Sequence record: MF327006 | Source of the DNA: Shigella phage Sf20 | Direction: 5' to 3' (one strand) | DNA length: 64,000 bases | Part shown: positions 22,800-60,428 of the stretch, piece after piece | Numbering within the stretch: position 1 is the stretch's first letter | Layout: the number at the start of each line of letters is the position of its first letter | Translations under genes and position numbers: made by a program | Notes under the pieces: generated by a model | The model's input: only the letters and a program-made list of their open reading frames with translations | The model's database searches: none | Told to the model about the DNA's origin: nothing

Positions 22800-23111
22800 T
22801 TAAAAATTCTTGCTATATATGCAAGCCTCATAATCTAGAGGATGACCGCCAATCCTACCCGGCTTAATATTCCAACCGCATCGATATTTGCTGACCATGC
22901 TAACAGTTTCGGTTCTTAGAGCATTTCTTTGCAAATCATACCCCCTAAATTCTTGTCTATAAGGACAGTCCGCTTTGCAAGTTGGCGGTTCTACGTCATT
23001 TAGAGGGTCGGAAGCAGTTGGCTTTATTATCAATTCTTTGTTTGCAATAATCATAAGCACATCCCATTGAAGACAATTTAACATCTTCGCAATAAGTGTT
23101 GAATCCGTCAA
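22800..23111 (-). CDS. hypothetical Cys-containing protein (start uncertain)
   Basis: ORF overlaps the upstream gene by >100 nt; true start probably internal. Confidence 0.3.
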   Translation of the reverse strand: MTDSTLIAKMLNCLQWDVLMIIANKELIIKPTASDPLNDVEPPTCKADCPYRQEFRGYDLQRNALRTETVSMVSKYRCGWNIKPGRIGGHPLDYEACIYSKNF

Positions 23112-26977: not shown

Positions 26978-27289
26978 TTAAAGTTTTTCCATGATAACGG
27001 TCATAATTACATCTTCTGCGCGAGCGGTCAGATTATCAGCGTCAGCATGTGGGCGGTTGGTTGTTACAGAGATAACACCGTTGCGCACTGGTTTGATATT
27101 GATATCAAGATGATCCGCGAAACGTTCGCCAGTTACAGAATGAATTTTGGTGTTAAATTCTTTTGCCAGTGCCTTGCGAACTTCACGAATCAGGATAGCG
27201 TTTTTCAGTTGGTTCTCCGCGCTCATGGTCTTCTGGGTGTTCATGGTTCCGTCGAAGTCAATCATTGGCAGCGTTACGATGTATTTCAT
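26978..27289 (-). CDS. hypothetical protein (103 aa), AKEFN-motif family
   Basis: Paralogous motif with 23664..23951. Confidence 0.45.
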   Translation of the reverse strand: MKYIVTLPMIDFDGTMNTQKTMSAENQLKNAILIREVRKALAKEFNTKIHSVTGERFADHLDINIKPVRNGVISVTTNRPHADADNLTARAEDVIMTVIMEKL

Positions 27290-27376: not shown

Positions 27377-27721
27377 TTATTTTTTCATGAGCTTAATGGC
27401 TTCTTCCATAGCCAGCACATTTCGATAGTTAGGGTATCGTGTTAGATCGTCATACATTCGCTTAAGGGTGGAAACTTCCTCAAACTCTGGGTTTTCTAGA
27501 TACAGTTGAACAAATTGTTTCTCTACCATCTCTGCTTTTAGCTTGTCTGCTTGTTCCTGTTCATATGATTTCGTTGGACCCAACACCAACAAAATGATAA
27601 AGGTGATCAACGGGCTAATGATCAATGATAGGATAACATAACCGATAACGCTACGGTTTAAACGGCTTGCATACATGCCTACCAGGAAAACAAAAAGGAT
27701 ATAGATAAACAGAAAGAACAT
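27377..27721 (-). CDS. membrane protein (two N-terminal TM helices)
   Basis: Hydrophobic N-terminal 50 aa followed by a charged coiled region. Confidence 0.5.
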   Translation of the reverse strand: MFFLFIYILFVFLVGMYASRLNRSVIGYVILSLIISPLITFIILLVLGPTKSYEQEQADKLKAEMVEKQFVQLYLENPEFEEVSTLKRMYDDLTRYPNYRNVLAMEEAIKLMKK

Positions 27722-43463: not shown

Positions 43464-44309
43464 TTACGCTGTCAACTCTTTTTCAAAAGATTTTACGATA
43501 TACATTAAATTTCTAATTTCGGACGGTGGGATTGTCTCTGTCCACCCGTCCGGCATAACTTTTTGCGATACGTGGCGTGTTTTATTACTAAGTTTTTGTC
43601 GAACAATACCCTCTAATTTTAGGGGTATGTTTCCATCTTTAGTTGTTAACGTATGGAATATAAAGTGACGAACGGAAGACACGCTGGATTGCTGTTTCAT
43701 CCTTTCCTCGGCTTTTTTGTTAGTGATTCCGAACTTATACCCGACAATACAACCCCAATTATCAACCAGTTTTTGTATATAAAAGGTTCCTGGTTTTCTT
43801 TTATCATAACCTCCTTTTTGAGTGGGACATTTCGGACACTGCATATCATCTAAAGATGCGACATATTTGCCATGAACGCAGCAATCCATACTTAGATTCT
43901 TTTCTCTTGCATTAATATACCCATTAATAAATCCATTGGATTTTACTTTTTCATTATGAGAACAAAATTCATCAATTCGTATATTTGCTGATATAACATT
44001 TTTTCTTCTCATTCGTTCCATCCAACATTCTTGACAACCACCTCCCCCATTTTTAAGTATATCGATAGTGGTTAATTTTTGCTTGTGGTTTGGATTTAAT
44101 CCACAAGCAATTTTAATTTTAGATCGTACACCAGACCACTCATAGAATCCCAAATATATCATATCTCCGCTTTTTATTTTTGGCGAATTTAATGCTTCAT
44201 TTTCAATCTCAATTGGAGATTTTGAATTATAGTAATGGATATATTCTATATCTTTAGCAAATCTGGTGTTCATTTTGTCCTCCGTTGTTTCTATGCTTGC
44301 ATTATACAT
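43464..44309 (-). CDS. T5orf172/GIY-YIG-like domain protein with Cys-rich N-terminal region
   Basis: C-terminal GTFYIQKL...VGYKFGITNKKAEERMK...GWTETIPP resembles T5orf172 (MUG113) domain; N-terminal CQEC and CPKC pairs. Confidence 0.45.
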   Translation of the reverse strand: MYNASIETTEDKMNTRFAKDIEYIHYYNSKSPIEIENEALNSPKIKSGDMIYLGFYEWSGVRSKIKIACGLNPNHKQKLTTIDILKNGGGGCQECWMERMRRKNVISANIRIDEFCSHNEKVKSNGFINGYINAREKNLSMDCCVHGKYVASLDDMQCPKCPTQKGGYDKRKPGTFYIQKLVDNWGCIVGYKFGITNKKAEERMKQQSSVSSVRHFIFHTLTTKDGNIPLKLEGIVRQKLSNKTRHVSQKVMPDGWTETIPPSEIRNLMYIVKSFEKELTA

Positions 44310-46637: not shown

Positions 46638-47237
46638 TTAACCCTCTTTAGTCATTAATTGAAAACCACGTTCAGCTTTTGATATTTCGCTAGGACTTAA
46701 ATCGTCACCAACATATCCTAGCATCATTTCTCGGATAATGTCAAGTGCTTTTTCATCACCTGATTTTAACTCGAACTCAAGTTCATAATGAGCAGTGTCG
46801 CCCAATCCTTCGCCTACTTTGCCATAATAGAAAGTGTCTTTGCACATTTCCACTATACCACAACCCATATCTAGAGTCAATGACTTGCGATATGTCATTA
46901 CTTGCATTATTGCAGTGATATAGTCGGAGTTTACCCCTAGACAATCAATAAAATGGACGAACTCATCCCAATTTGAAAATGTCATTTCCTCGCGGTTGAA
47001 TAGTCCAGATTCATTATCACCCATTTTGACCATGATCTCTGATTTTCTACAGTCAAGTCGTGCATAAATTCCTTTTTGACGTAGCGCATGATCTTCGGTA
47101 TCATAATAAAATTCGTGTTTTAATATGTTATCTCGGTCTAATAGATTGTACCCGTCATACATTGCCACCCACAAATCACAGATTGTTTCTACACCATCCT
47201 GTGAATGGGCATAGTATTTTAATTCAAGTTCTTTCAT
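46638..47237 (-). CDS. CYTH-like (triphosphate tunnel metalloenzyme) domain protein
   Basis: N-terminal ExExK-like KELELKYY and a later acidic strand ELEFELK; ~200 aa. Confidence 0.45.
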   Translation of the reverse strand: MKELELKYYAHSQDGVETICDLWVAMYDGYNLLDRDNILKHEFYYDTEDHALRQKGIYARLDCRKSEIMVKMGDNESGLFNREEMTFSNWDEFVHFIDCLGVNSDYITAIMQVMTYRKSLTLDMGCGIVEMCKDTFYYGKVGEGLGDTAHYELEFELKSGDEKALDIIREMMLGYVGDDLSPSEISKAERGFQLMTKEG

Positions 47238-47247
47238 ATGTCAACCC

Positions 47248-48195
47248 TTAGAACTCACCAATTTTCTGCAACATTTTAACTAACGCATTTGTTACAAAAT
47301 AGTTATAAATTTTACCGCGTGGTGCTGGTTTAGATTTCTCCCATGCTAACAAAATTTCATATTCGATGTTATCAGGAATAAATTCAAAATCAATAAGTTC
47401 GCGGTTTTCGTCAAAGCGTCGTGCTTCTTCCTCTGTCATCAAAGACTTTGGATCTTCGGCATCGAAAATTTGCTCTAACCATTTGGTTGCAATTGGTTTA
47501 GCTCTTTCTCCTTCCAGTCGTGAGATAATGAAATCACTACGGCACTTGATCGAAGCCACACCGTCTTTTGCGTCACCCTTAACACATTTTACCATAAGGT
47601 CTTTGTAAGGGCTACCATATTTGCATTTCTTCCATGCTTTCTGTACTGGTGCCCACTGTTTCACATTTTTGTATTTGTGTAACTGTGTGTAGTCACCATC
47701 GCCGGAGTTGATTAGCACCTGGCGACCTTCTACAGAAAACTTTTTAGTTAACACAGCGATTATATCATCCGCTTCAACTTTGTCAACCTTAATAACGTGA
47801 TAAGGCATGTTCTCTTTAAACTCTTCGGTGATCTTATTGATCGCAGCAAAGATCATCTCCCAATCACGCGGATCTGCGTCTCGTTTTTCCTTACGGTTGC
47901 GTTTATAGTAAGGTGCGATATCACGTCGCCAGTAACCTTTGCTTGAATCAAAGGCAAGTACCGTAATTGGGTATTGCTCTTTGAATTTTGTCATATTATA
48001 ACGCATGGTGTCAAGGATAAGATGACGAATCATGCCTTCATTAATAGGATCTTCCGGTTTAAAGGTATGCGAGATAGTAGCAATCATAAGCTGCGACATA
48101 TCAATCAAATGCACACCTTCCGGCAGTTTATCTTCTGGATCATCAAAAAAATCATTAAGTGTAGCGGTAGTTTTTGTAAACGGGTTATACGTCAT
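47248..48195 (-). CDS. rnh: RNase H (5'-3' exonuclease, FEN family)
   Basis: GYWRRD, YYKRNR, VDKVEADDIIAV, SGDGDYTQLHKY, PPRGKIYNYF match T4 RNase H. Confidence 0.9.
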   Translation of the reverse strand: MTYNPFTKTTATLNDFFDDPEDKLPEGVHLIDMSQLMIATISHTFKPEDPINEGMIRHLILDTMRYNMTKFKEQYPITVLAFDSSKGYWRRDIAPYYKRNRKEKRDADPRDWEMIFAAINKITEEFKENMPYHVIKVDKVEADDIIAVLTKKFSVEGRQVLINSGDGDYTQLHKYKNVKQWAPVQKAWKKCKYGSPYKDLMVKCVKGDAKDGVASIKCRSDFIISRLEGERAKPIATKWLEQIFDAEDPKSLMTEEEARRFDENRELIDFEFIPDNIEYEILLAWEKSKPAPRGKIYNYFVTNALVKMLQKIGEF

Positions 48196-48197
48196 AA

Positions 48198-48383
48198 TTA
48201 AGTTCTCTCCACTCTCACAACAACATATTCGCCAAACGAGTTAGATACTTCACGATCATACCCGTATTTCTCCATAACTCGCAGAATTGCATTGTTTAAT
48301 TCGGCACGGAAATAATTATAATCCTTATCAGGGATTCTGTCAACTACCCATTTTGCACCTTCTGACAAATCAACTTTAACCAT
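48198..48383 (-). CDS. hypothetical protein (61 aa)
   Basis: ORF coupled to rnh. Confidence 0.35.
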   Translation of the reverse strand: MVKVDLSEGAKWVVDRIPDKDYNYFRAELNNAILRVMEKYGYDREVSNSFGEYVVVRVERT

Positions 48384-55466: not shown

Positions 55467-58406
55467 ATGGCAGATTTAAGCAGAATCCAATTTAAACGTA
55501 CTAGCACTAAAGGCCGTCGACCTGATGCTGGTACGATGAATCCGGGGGAATTGGCAATCAACCTTGCGGATCAATATCTTCTTACTAAAAATGATTCCGG
55601 TGCTATTATCAATTTAAGTTGTCCTCCGGTTTATGACCGCGATGTTACAATGGCAGGTAAGGTTAAAGGTAATAATTATATCTTAAGTAAAACCGCCAAC
55701 TATCTGGAAGATCAGACAGCGAGAGACCTTAACTACTTTGGTGCTTTCCGTACCAATGGTCTTGACGGTTTTCTCGAACTCACGCTAAACGTTCCTCATT
55801 CTTCTGGTGTTCAGCATGGTCGAGGATTTACTTTCCAGTATGGACACACAGGAAACCGTGTAGAAACTTATGGTTATAATAAAGAAGGACAAAAAGCATT
55901 TAGCTATAAAATGTATCATGAAGGTGATAAACCTACCCCATCGGAATTGAACGTTTATAGCAAACAAGAAGTTGACCGTATGTTTGTTAAAACCGTTAAA
56001 CTTGCTACAGTTCCTGTTGATATCGTTGACGGTTATTTTAAATTAGCAACTGCAATGATTCCGCAAAACGGTCGTAGTGTATTTTTCCGTATTCATGGTG
56101 GTAACGGATATAACGTTACCGCATACGATCAAGTTGATATTGTAGAAATTGTTATTCGCAGTGGAAATAATCGTCCTAAAGGTGTTAACGTTATTGCATA
56201 CCGACGAAATACAAACAAATCATTTGATGTTTTGGCTGTTAATACTTCTGGTGATAACTATGATATCTACGTGAAATATCAGCGTTACACTGATAACGTT
56301 ATTGTTGAATTTGGTAAAAGTGTTGATGTTGATCTGGTAGTCCATGACGTTCCCGACTTTGTTGTTGATCGTCCTGCTGGCGATAATGTTATTGGCGGTC
56401 GCGCGGTAACTCTTTTCAACACAGAAAATAAACGTGGTGTGTTGAGTTTTGACGATAACACACAAAATAGTTATGATATTGTTCACTTGAGTAATGATAA
56501 AGGTACTGGTCGGAAATATATTCGTAAATTCCGCAGTAACTATAATGAAATGATCTGGCATGAGACGGTTCAAGGTTCTACCTATCGACTCGCCACGGGT
56601 AGTACCGATGCTCAGGAGATTCTAACCGTTGAATCTGTTAGCTCAATTGCTGGAACTCATAAAGGTAATATTATTTCTGGACGTATGCTGTTAAATGGCG
56701 GTAGTAATGTTATTACCTTGCGGCGTCCTGCTGGTCAATCCAACCATATTGCGTTTCAAGATAATCGTACTGGAGATATTACCCGTCAAGGATGGATCGG
56801 TTATGCCAATGCTGATACTAACATTTTTGAATGGTATAGTGATGTAGGTGGCAGTTCTATTCGTCAACATATTGACGGACAGATCGAACTTGCAACCGGT
56901 AACACAAAACGCGTTTATACTAACGCTCAATTCATCTCAATGAATAGCGACGCCTACCGCATGCTCTACGGTAATTATGGTGCATTCTGGCGTAATGACG
57001 GCGTTAAAGTTTATCTTCTTTCTACTGCCGAAAATGATAAATTGGGCGGGTGGAATGCCTATCGTCCATTCATTTATGATTTAACTTCCGGTAACGTTCA
57101 ATTAGGCGGTGATGGTAACGAAGAAGCATTAACGTTAGAACGTGCTTCTCGTGCCGCTCGATTTAGTAATGACGTTTACATTAAGAAAGGGCTTTTGACT
57201 TTCGACGCTGGTCGTGCTGGATCTCGCGATTATATTCGATTTAATCATTGGGGTGATAGCAATAATGCTCGTGATAACGTTTTGTACATAGAAGATAGTC
57301 AAGGCCGACATTTTAGTACAGAACGTGCGATGGGTACTGGTGCTCTTAAAGCATACTTCTTAGGCGATCTTGAAGTCGGTGGTAAGTTTACTTGGGGTAA
57401 AAATACAGCTACATCTAGCTTTAATATCCGTGCATGGGGTGCTGATGCTCGTAAACAGGTATTAGAATGTGCTGATGAAAGCGGTTGGCATTGGTATACC
57501 CAACGACCGGGCGGTCCTGGTACTGATGCAATTGAATTTTCTATTAACGGTACGGTTAAGCCTAAAGCAATTCATACTGGCGGCAATATCACTATCAACG
57601 GTGCTGATATTGAGTTTAAACGCGCTGGCAATAAGCATTTATGGTTTAGAGATCCAAACGGATTAGAATTGGGTTTGATTTATTGTGATGATGCTGGTGT
57701 TATTCGTGTCCGTGGTGAGAAGTCGACCGAAGTGTGGAAATTCTCGGCAAAACAGATTCATTTAGAAACGGGTACTGCTGGTAACGGTGTTGGTTTAATC
57801 CGTGGTGCAGTTGGTGGTGGTGCGTGGACTCAATGGAGAGACCGTGGTACTGGCTTACAGGTTGACTGCCAACAATCAGAAAACTCAGCACACAACATAT
57901 GGCGAGCGACTCATCAAGGTAAGTACCATCTTGCAGCAATGGGTGTTCATGCATCTGGTGGTAGTGTTGCTAATACCGTTGTTCGCTTACATGTTCATGA
58001 CTCAAACTATGATTTCACTGCTGTTGGTGACTTCACCGCAGGTCGTAACGGTTCGTTTAACGATGTGTACATTCGTTCTGATGCTCGCCTTAAAATCAAC
58101 AAGGAAGAGTATAAAGAGAATGCCACCGATAAAGTTAATCGCTTAACTGTATACACCTATGACAAGGTTAAATCTTTAACCGACCGTACTGTCATTGCTC
58201 ATGAAGTTGGCATTATCGCACAGGATCTTGAGAAAGAATTGCCGGAAGCAGTAACAACCTCGAAGATCGGAGACGGTGATACACCAGAAGAGATCTTAAC
58301 AATTTCTAACTCTGCTGTCAACGCTCTTTTAATTAAGGCGTTTCAGGAAATGAGCGAAGAATTGAAAGCCGTTAAAGCTGAACTAGCGGAACTTAAAAAG
58401 AATTAA
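55467..58406 (+). CDS. 37: long tail fiber distal subunit / receptor-binding protein gp37 with C-terminal intramolecular-chaperone-like domain
   Basis: N-terminus MADLSRIQFKRTSTKGRRPDAG...GELAINL matches T4 gp37; C-terminal ~110 aa begins SDARLK and ends in a coiled coil, resembling peptidase S74 chaperone domains. Confidence 0.8.
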   Translation: MADLSRIQFKRTSTKGRRPDAGTMNPGELAINLADQYLLTKNDSGAIINLSCPPVYDRDVTMAGKVKGNNYILSKTANYLEDQTARDLNYFGAFRTNGLDGFLELTLNVPHSSGVQHGRGFTFQYGHTGNRVETYGYNKEGQKAFSYKMYHEGDKPTPSELNVYSKQEVDRMFVKTVKLATVPVDIVDGYFKLATAMIPQNGRSVFFRIHGGNGYNVTAYDQVDIVEIVIRSGNNRPKGVNVIAYRRNTNKSFDVLAVNTSGDNYDIYVKYQRYTDNVIVEFGKSVDVDLVVHDVPDFVVDRPAGDNVIGGRAVTLFNTENKRGVLSFDDNTQNSYDIVHLSNDKGTGRKYIRKFRSNYNEMIWHETVQGSTYRLATGSTDAQEILTVESVSSIAGTHKGNIISGRMLLNGGSNVITLRRPAGQSNHIAFQDNRTGDITRQGWIGYANADTNIFEWYSDVGGSSIRQHIDGQIELATGNTKRVYTNAQFISMNSDAYRMLYGNYGAFWRNDGVKVYLLSTAENDKLGGWNAYRPFIYDLTSGNVQLGGDGNEEALTLERASRAARFSNDVYIKKGLLTFDAGRAGSRDYIRFNHWGDSNNARDNVLYIEDSQGRHFSTERAMGTGALKAYFLGDLEVGGKFTWGKNTATSSFNIRAWGADARKQVLECADESGWHWYTQRPGGPGTDAIEFSINGTVKPKAIHTGGNITINGADIEFKRAGNKHLWFRDPNGLELGLIYCDDAGVIRVRGEKSTEVWKFSAKQIHLETGTAGNGVGLIRGAVGGGAWTQWRDRGTGLQVDCQQSENSAHNIWRATHQGKYHLAAMGVHASGGSVANTVVRLHVHDSNYDFTAVGDFTAGRNGSFNDVYIRSDARLKINKEEYKENATDKVNRLTVYTYDKVKSLTDRTVIAHEVGIIAQDLEKELPEAVTTSKIGDGDTPEEILTISNSAVNALLIKAFQEMSEELKAVKAELAELKKN

Positions 58407-59415: not shown

Positions 59416-59661
59416 TTGGCGCATAGAAGCCCCTGAATCACATTTTGACGCTGTATGATGAAAACATGTAGCGTACCAGTCATCGGCTTGTTTGTCTTCG
59501 TCAGAAAACGCGTAATTGCGTTGTATGCCGTTTTCTACTTTGACCAGTGCAATAGCTGTTTCTGGAAGATCAATCAATCGGACAAAATCACCGTCTTCCC
59601 ACTCCACACGGGCAATATCATAGCCCATCTCAAAGTATACAATCGCTTGTTCTAATTTCAT
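59413..59661 (-). CDS. hypothetical protein (82 aa)
   Basis: ORF. Confidence 0.4.
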   Translation of the reverse strand: MKLEQAIVYFEMGYDIARVEWEDGDFVRLIDLPETAIALVKVENGIQRNYAFSDEDKQADDWYATCFHHTASKCDSGASMRQ

Positions 59662-59987
59662 TCTGGAAACTTCCCGTAAACATTCTCTGCCAGCTTACGT
59701 GCATCTTTTACAATATCTTTCATATAATGACTATAATTTTTAGCTAGATCAATGATGCAATCAACAAAGAAGTAATAGCGTCGCAGTGCTACCAGCTCAA
59801 CATCTTCAAGATGACCATTTTCTCCAATCGCTGAAATATGTTTAAATTCCTTTCGGATCGCGTCCATCGCTACATTAACTTCTTTTATAATATCTTTCGT
59901 ATTATATGCACCTCGACTAATCAAAATTTTGGTTAGGTCTTCTGCTTTTTCGTGAAAGTTGTCAATTTCAAACTCGATCATAATCAC
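59658..59987 (-). CDS. hypothetical protein, ENxxGKF family copy 1
   Basis: Paralogous to 60096..60428 (C-terminal AENVYGKFPE vs TENIFGKF). Confidence 0.45.
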   Translation of the reverse strand: MIMIEFEIDNFHEKAEDLTKILISRGAYNTKDIIKEVNVAMDAIRKEFKHISAIGENGHLEDVELVALRRYYFFVDCIIDLAKNYSHYMKDIVKDARKLAENVYGKFPE

Positions 59988-60095: not shown

Positions 60096-60428
60096 TCAAA
60101 ATTTACCGAAAATATTCTCTGTCATAATTCTTGCTTCGTCGATTATTTTCGTCATGTTCATGGTGTAGTTATGATCATTTAGTGCTTTAATAACAACGAG
60201 CAAGGAATCTAAAAACACTCGATACCGGGTATATTCTACGCTATTTGTGAATACCGATGTTTTCTCTACTTTATCGATCAGATAGCCTAAAGCCGATAGC
60301 GCCTCGTTTACTTCCCTTGTTACTTTATCGGCGCTAAACAACACCGGATAAAGACGCGGTGTGATTAACCGCGCTGCCTCTTTCAATTCGGTCGCTTTCC
60401 ATGATTCATATTTGTCATAGTTAAACAT
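60096..60428 (-). CDS. hypothetical protein, ENxxGKF family copy 2
   Basis: Paralog of 59658..59987. Confidence 0.45.
   Translation of the reverse strand: MFNYDKYESWKATELKEAARLITPRLYPVLFSADKVTREVNEALSALGYLIDKVEKTSVFTNSVEYTRYRVFLDSLLVVIKALNDHNYTMNMTKIIDEARIMTENIFGKF

Follow-up and report, generated by a model that had tools for sequence, protein, structure and literature searches.

A CYTH-type triphosphate tunnel protein, likely a hydrolase of a small triphosphate, encoded between rnh and dsbA of Shigella phage Sf20

Shigella phage Sf20 carries a gene between rnh and dsbA, at a place where phage T4 has none, which raises the question of what kind of enzyme the gene encodes and what such an enzyme could do during infection. 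The sequence analysed here (the window) is a 64,000-nt stretch of record MF327006, and the gene occupies positions 46638..47237 on the minus strand, as do the other gene features of the locus. It begins with ATG and encodes 199 aa, exactly the open reading frame (ORF) singled out by the original prediction, and both neighbours named there are identified by Pfam: rnh lies directly upstream (RNaseH_C, 3e-37) and dsbA directly downstream (Phage_DsbA, 5e-22), the start of dsbA being 4 nt from the stop codon of the gene. In T4, as that prediction had also claimed, dsbA and rnh are adjacent, 8 bp apart with nothing between them. That the gene is genuine is shown by its presence in each of the 58 phage records that contain the region (it is intact in 57 of them) and by a dN/dS ratio of ~0.25-0.3.

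Three lines of evidence support the prediction that the product is a CYTH-like triphosphate tunnel protein: sequence profiles, a confidently predicted structure with two fold searches, and the conservation of catalytic residues. Pfam CYTH (PF01928) matches residues 1-190 with positions 1-177 of the 179 in its profile (E=1e-5; 25.9 bits, the gathering cut-off being 23.2), most of the close homologues carry a precomputed PF01928 assignment, and the protein also matches PHROG 14893. When the family profile was compared with the sequences of the PDB, the sole match was Escherichia coli YgiF (E=0.005, residues 3-195), and alignment by hhalign to residues 1-201 of YgiF gave a probability of 94.5% over 183 columns. 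An AlphaFold2 model built with 18 family members (pLDDT 91.1, pTM 0.85) contains eight long strands and a C-terminal helix, assigned by DSSP to residues 187-195; it thus presents the eight-stranded antiparallel beta-barrel tunnel and the plug helix at the C-terminus seen in triphosphate tunnel metalloenzymes (TTMs). YgiF was the best match of the predicted structure in two independent fold searches (Foldseek top match 5a60, E=1.1e-12, TM 0.78), and the RNA triphosphatases Cet1 and those of mimivirus and vaccinia were also among the fold matches. We therefore regard it as practically certain that the phage protein is a CYTH protein with the TTM fold. A weak phmmer match to the TriTu immunity protein (7zhm, E=0.1) was not reproduced by the family profile and is ascribed to chance.

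The active site points in the same direction. For YgiF, Martinez et al. 2015 (PMC4641920) found that the substrate-associated metal (site 1) is bound by E160 and the catalytic metal (site 2) by E4, E6 and E162, and that R56 is essential and probably the proton donor. The phage residues aligned with E4, E6, E160, E162 and R56 are E3, E5, E154, E156 and R60, all of them invariant in 45 of 45 clade members. The two acidic strands that had drawn attention to the gene, KELELKYY and ELEFELK, are those that carry the glutamates. The first lies at the very beginning of the protein (MKELELKYY), where the ExExK signature E3-L-E5-L-K7 on strand beta1 (47217..47231, minus strand) corresponds to E4, E6 and K8 of YgiF, at metal site 2. 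The second belongs to YELEFELK (residues 151-158), within which E152-L-E154-F-E156-L-K158 forms strand beta8 (46764..46784, minus strand); E154 stands for site 1 and E156 for site 2, and E152 is invariant as well. The catalytic arginine lies in Y58-A-R60-L-D62 on strand beta3 (47052..47066, minus strand), where hhalign and a multiple alignment (MAFFT) bridged by intermediate sequences agree in placing R60 on R56 of YgiF, although the pairwise phmmer/hmmsearch alignment shifts the strand by two residues and puts Tyr58 at the catalytic Arg. By the same two methods K71, R82, R117, D134 and K187/R190 correspond to K69, R81, R126, D143 and K191/R194 of YgiF. The C-terminal plug helix contains S186-K-A-E-R-G-F-Q-L-M195 (46653..46682, minus strand), whose SKxERG motif matches S190-K191...R194 of YgiF, and S186 and K187 are invariant across the clade and the outgroup. 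The mapped metal- and phosphate-binding residues are without exception invariant in the 45 clade sequences, and among 149 remoter relatives each is conserved to 90% or more.

From these residues and the two-metal scheme of YgiF and AtTTM3 we infer that the protein is, with high probability, an active two-metal triphosphohydrolase, Mg/Mn-dependent hydrolysis of a small triphosphate being its most likely function. The triphosphate moiety would lie in the centre of the eight-stranded barrel, held by K7, R60, K71, R82, R117 and K187/R190, while E154 would complete the coordination of the substrate-bound Mg2+ or Mn2+ at site 1. E3, E5 and E156 would hold the second metal, with a water molecule activated for attack on the terminal phosphate; R60 would act as the proton donor, and the C-terminal helix would plug one end of the tunnel. 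The nearest relative is E. coli YgiF, a CYTH-CHAD inorganic triphosphatase (PPPase; PDB 5a60/5a61), which shares with the phage protein the ExExK signature, the catalytic Arg, the equivalents of K69, R81, R126 and D143, the ExExE strand, the ELxSGD turn and the SKxxRG plug helix. In contrast to YgiF, the phage protein has no CHAD domain. It resembles in this respect the stand-alone enzymes NeuTTM, CthTTM, SaTTM and BH2851, which likewise are single-domain proteins of ~150-200 aa with a two-metal acidic patch and a plug helix and which hydrolyse inorganic triphosphate (PPPi) or short polyphosphates; however, these belong to other sequence-similarity clusters and keep RxR with a preceding small residue. 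Taken as a whole, the account that we favour, a stand-alone TTM consisting of a YgiF-type tunnel domain without CHAD that hydrolyses a small triphosphate, is likely. The leading substrate candidate would be PPPi or a very short polyphosphate, which is the default by homology.

The gene has a narrow distribution. The region is 96-98.6% identical to the genomes of Krischvirus members (W115, Phi1, ECD7, RB49 and others), Straboviridae phages of E. coli or Shigella. A word-indexed search recovered 43 clusters at an identity of at least 48%, and an exhaustive profile search of 1.84 billion representatives yielded three matches at E<1e-30 and six at E<1e-10. The remaining ~220 matches of the profile search are generic cellular CYTH or CYTH-CHAD proteins, all the cellular ones having E>=1e-13. 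Among other cultured T4-like phages, tblastn with the window protein and two of its uncultured relatives (P0044 and P0045) returned only the same 58 Krischvirus records, and IMG/VR contributed only three close relatives. As judged from these searches, the family forms a small, isolated clade that is specific to phages and does not extend beyond Krischvirus and a few uncultured T4-like lineages. The gene is not a recent capture of host ygiF, as the low identity of 22-25% between the two proteins and the isolation of the clade from cellular sequences show. On uncultured T4-like contigs, relatives with 48% (P0043), 40% (P0044) and 30% (P0045) identity all lie directly upstream of dsbA-33 and, wherever upstream sequence is available, directly downstream of rnh. 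The linkage rnh-CYTH-dsbA, which is described here for the first time, therefore persists down to 30% identity. Other phages encode CYTH folds too: CYTH triphosphatases are scattered among jumbo phages (Iyer et al. 2021), where they include CYTH/MazG triphosphatases, and others occur in uncultured Caudovirales (BFVD). However, these are relatives at the level of the fold only (17% identity, TM 0.54), and they are not found in the rnh-dsbA slot.

Most of the records label the product as a hypothetical protein; three (AV108, KMB43 and PHB13) call it adenylate cyclase and two inorganic triphosphatase. The orthologue in RB49 is RB49ORF244c, whose GenBank entry reads 'similar to P45267, P30871, HI1598, ygiF' and which is listed in the Pfam table of Nolan et al. 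2006 (PMC1524935) with a CYTH match at E=0.0026. The identification as CYTH is thus prior art, hinted at by public annotation since 2003-2006. Class IV adenylate cyclases are distinguished by an N-terminal extension of ExExK to HFxxxxExExK, which serves adenine stacking, by a small neutral residue in place of the first Arg of RxR on strand beta3 and by ExA on strand beta8 (Vogt et al. 2021, PMC8233210), and all three discriminators fail in the phage protein. Its ExExK starts at residue 3 with only M1-K2 before it, which leaves no room for HFxxxxExExK; R60 is retained, being present in 45 of 45 clade members; and E154-F-E156 is invariant on strand beta8. Because the three motif tests fail and the equivalog model TIGR00318 (cyaB) of NCBIfam has no match at E<=0.1, the 'adenylate cyclase' labels are almost certainly wrong.

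The other CYTH classes fit to different degrees. The YgiF type (cluster 1 of the sequence similarity network of Vogt et al. 2021) shows the closest relation in sequence and structure and shares the catalytic residues. However, its small-x-R-x-R on strand beta3 is Y58-x-R60-x-D62 in the phage protein, and in place of a CHAD domain the chain ends 4 residues past the plug helix, Pfam finding only CYTH. Thiamine triphosphatases (ThTPases) have the motif W/YxRxR, in which the aromatic residue stacks on the thiazole and the two Arg bind phosphate, whereas other CYTH clusters have a small residue at the first position (PMC8233210). In the mammalian 25-kDa enzyme the aromatic residue precedes the catalytic Arg by two positions (W53xR55 in the mouse), as it does in Y58xR60 of the phage protein. 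However, the phage clade has YxRxD, Asp standing where ThTPases have their second Arg, P0044 and P0045 lack the Tyr, and similarity is too low for the phage protein to match this enzyme among PDB sequences. A relation to Cet1-like RNA triphosphatases (PF02940) was found neither by profile match nor as the closest structural similarity, and Pfam mRNA_triPase gave no match even at E<=1.

The gene is also unusual in its variability. When the window was compared with RB49 and Skers, rnh, dsbA, 33 and 59 showed 97-100% DNA identity. In contrast, codons 6-150 of the CYTH gene (46788..47222, minus strand) form a hypervariable core with sharp edges and an identity of 45-62% to Skers and 72-92% to RB49, and the last 48 codons are back at 97-100%. 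Against RB49 the synonymous divergence (dS) of the core is 0.45, and against Skers it has reached saturation, whereas the flanks have values of 0.02-0.09; dN/dS of the core is ~0.25-0.3. Since synonymous sites are equally inflated and dN/dS is ~0.3, the variability appears to reflect old divergent alleles imported by homologous recombination. For the same reasons diversifying selection is unsupported as its cause; the gene is under purifying selection. The crossover points lie in the two stretches that encode the best conserved motifs, ELELKYY and YELEFELKSGD. Of the strand positions in the variable core, 20 of the 38 classed as inward-facing by strand parity, not from model coordinates, are invariant, against 2 of the 39 outward-facing ones (Mann-Whitney p=3e-5). 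The exterior would accordingly evolve fast and be swapped between phages by recombination, while the tunnel would be kept. Among the ~100 ORFs of the window only ~5 syntenic genes are so diverged from Skers, the distal tail-fibre (adhesin) gene being one of them.

The other syntenic ORFs diverged from Skers are at 43464-44309 (-), 55467-58406 (+), 59658-59987 (-) and 60096-60428 (-), with 39%, 45%, 53% and 32% amino acid identity, respectively; the one of 979 aa is the distal long tail fibre, and the one of 281 aa corresponds to a nuclease-like mobile ORF beside gene 32. Nearly all the remaining ORFs of the window are 93-100% identical to Skers. In addition, a C-terminal patch of rnh at ~47340-47400 has 60-78% DNA identity to RB49 and Skers, compared with 95-100% in the rest of rnh, and looks like a second small mosaic segment. 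Three small ORFs of the early region, at 22800-23111 (-), 26978-27289 (-) and 27377-27721 (-), have no counterpart in Skers by tblastn at E<=1e-3 and are candidate indel or accessory genes.

Several signals bear on the expression of the CYTH gene. A Shine-Dalgarno sequence AAGGG (47245..47249, minus strand; read from the sequence ...GAGTTCTAAGGGTTGACATATG) lies 8 nt upstream of the ATG and overlaps the stop codon of rnh. Sites resembling sigma-70 promoters number 26 on the coding strand, compared with 13.6 +/- 3.6 expected. One predicted promoter, a perfect sigma-70 consensus (12/12) at 48315..48343 (minus strand), lies upstream of rnh, with predicted read-through into the CYTH gene. Another, a perfect extended sigma-70 promoter TTGACA-16-TGaTATAAT (12/12) at 47759..47786 (minus strand), is predicted inside rnh, and the first ORF lying wholly downstream of it is the CYTH gene. 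This internal promoter lies within the codons that specify VDKVEADDII, a conserved RNase H motif. It is kept in a divergent lineage (L004, 1337-1364) in which synonymous sites are saturated; the four nucleotide differences from the window are all in the spacer, third-codon positions being changed in 4 of 4 cases in the spacer and in 0 of 5 in the promoter elements. No promoter was found at the same place in T4 rnh, and no late TATAAATA motif is present on the coding strand nearby. Early expression of the CYTH gene is therefore plausible, given the sigma-70 promoters upstream and the lack of a nearby late motif. The gene is probably an accessory, early-expressed member of the rnh-dsbA-33-59 transcription unit. 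A further sigma-70-like site (11/12, TTGACA-17-TAAAAT) at 47216-47244 (-) has its -35 element between the ribosome binding site and the ATG and its -10 element in the codons of ExExK; a transcript from it, should the site be functional, would begin inside the CYTH gene.

A number of points weigh against the account of a YgiF-like hydrolase of a small triphosphate. The fold is that of a predicted structure, not of a solved one, and the contrast between inward- and outward-facing positions depends on the parity assignment given above. The identity of 22-25% to YgiF is too low for its substrate specificity to be carried over. YgiF itself is a specific Mg-dependent PPPase that does not hydrolyse ATP, GTP, ITP, pyrophosphate or polyP65, hydrolyses thiamine triphosphate (ThTP) slowly and lacks cyclase activity (PMC3440374). 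Its share of the cellular PPPase activity is marginal, and the inorganic pyrophosphatase of E. coli already supplies ample PPPase activity (PMC3440374), so that a plain PPPase would be without obvious benefit to the phage. The strand carrying the catalytic Arg differs as well. Position 58 is aromatic and is Tyr in 42 of 45 clade members, compared with A/S/G/T in the outgroup, and D62 is present in 44 of 45, where the outgroup has Arg in 115 of 143 sequences and Asp in only nine; the corresponding residues of YgiF are G54 and R58. As read from these alignments, Tyr58 and Asp62 argue that the substrate, or the way it is bound, differs from that of YgiF. In phage vB_EcoM_G2494 (L013, 301-896) the gene is split into ORFs of 66 aa and 130 aa, either because a frameshift has made it a pseudogene or through an error of sequencing, and the split may mean that the gene is dispensable in culture. 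Finally, we found no experimental work in the literature on phage CYTH or TTM proteins, or on ygiF and phages.

It is Tyr58 and Asp62 that make an organic triphosphate, a nucleotide or ThTP, a serious alternative substrate. The protein would then remove the gamma-phosphate not from free PPPi but from an organic triphosphate in phage-host conflict or in the control of nucleotide pools, the candidates being NTPs or dNTPs, a non-canonical or signalling nucleotide (a defence second messenger or an alarmone) and ThTP. Tyr58 occupies the W/Y position of the ThTPase motif, the site of the thiamine-stacking Trp, and would stack on the base or heterocycle, and Asp62 replaces an Arg that contacts the beta and gamma phosphates. 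In line with this, ATP bound to SaTTM points its base to the plug helix (PMC8233210), degradation of NTPs has been proposed for phage CYTH proteins (Iyer et al. 2021), and a plain PPPase is weakly motivated in a host that already hydrolyses PPPi efficiently. However, Tyr58 is replaced in the deepest members of the clade, by V in P0044, I in P0045 and S in P0006. The membership of the gene in the group of ~5 hypervariable syntenic genes that includes the tail-fibre adhesin is a pattern common for conflict genes; however, the divergence extends to synonymous sites with dN/dS ~0.3, as expected of old imported alleles and not of demonstrable positive selection, and PADLOC models gave no match that would link the protein to a defence system. 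RB49-type phages make no hydroxymethylcytosine and already own the gp56 dCTPase/dUTPase. We consider an organic triphosphate possible, on a tentative footing. The particular proposal that the enzyme degrades unmodified NTPs to favour modified bases is unlikely, as RB49-type phages lack gene 42 and have gene 56.

A more specific proposal, which we hold to be rather unlikely, is that the protein serves counter-defence or host takeover by destroying a small molecule that bears a triphosphate and is made in infection. The target could be a nucleotide of immune signalling, an alarmone, the triphosphate of thiamine or of adenosine-thiamine, or PPPi set free by dNTP triphosphohydrolases. If this were so, the Tyr58/Asp62 pair would set a new substrate specificity, and the turnover of exterior alleles around an invariant tunnel would be the mark of an arms race with a sensor or inhibitor of the host by which the protein is recognised; a signalling or defence nucleotide as substrate would make the protein a new enzyme class in phage counter-defence.

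The adjacency of rnh could point to a different target, the 5'-triphosphate end of RNA. A 5'-triphosphatase could act on the pppAC... primers of Okazaki fragments, which are processed by the adjacent RNase H, or on mRNA ends, tuning RNase E-dependent decay. The TTM enzymes include the RNA triphosphatases Cet1 and those of mimivirus and vaccinia seen among the fold matches, and the gene stands immediately 3' of rnh down to 30% identity. However, T4-like replication clusters generally have a rigid gene order, which makes adjacency weak evidence, and T4 manages without such a gene. Together with the missing mRNA_triPase match and the retention of the C-terminal plug helix, which is typical of small-molecule TTMs, this renders an RNA substrate improbable. 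It is very doubtful, too, that the gene is a non-catalytic binding module or on its way to loss, as might be read from the split in G2494, from the 130-aa truncated form that also occurs in protein databases (P0041; BFVD A0A482GBZ4) and from the absence of the gene in T4: the metal- and phosphate-binding residues are all invariant over a clade reaching 30% identity, tunnel-lining positions are selectively conserved at dN/dS ~0.3, and all but one of the cultured genomes carry the gene intact. Lastly, there is scarcely any chance that the protein is a class IV cyclase making cAMP or another cyclic nucleotide to manipulate host signalling, for the labels of AV108, KMB43 and PHB13 are opposed by the three failed discriminators, the unmatched TIGR00318 and the lack of cyclase activity in YgiF.

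Beyond the known CYTH assignment, what is new here is the exclusion of a cyclase, the clade-specific Tyr and Asp, the deep rnh-CYTH-dsbA linkage, the mosaic core with an invariant tunnel and the conserved internal promoter. The annotation is thereby corrected from adenylate cyclase, a phage-specific CYTH clade is documented, and the gene emerges as a hotspot of recombination and variability in an otherwise conserved replication and transcription cluster. What bacterial CYTH enzymes, among them YgiF, act on in the cell is not yet clear. A phage with a CYTH enzyme retained behind a strong predicted early promoter, with swapped alleles, offers a tractable system for asking which triphosphate matters in infection, and the gene is a reasonable, if not urgent, experimental target.

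The further neighbours of the CYTH gene on the same strand are, according to Pfam, gene 32, gene 59 (T4_Gp59_N/C) and gene 33 (Trans_coact). Beyond rnh there is an ORF of 61 aa (48198-48383, minus strand), followed by gene 34, which is divergently transcribed. The 61-aa ORF, inside which the consensus promoter upstream of rnh is located, is the orthologue of RB49ORF246c and has no family match, and T4 has no annotated gene at its position. In phage Skers a gene for an HNH homing endonuclease, which the window lacks, separates genes 59 and 32; SegG of T4 is found at the same 59/32 junction, which looks like a recurrent insertion site of homing endonucleases.

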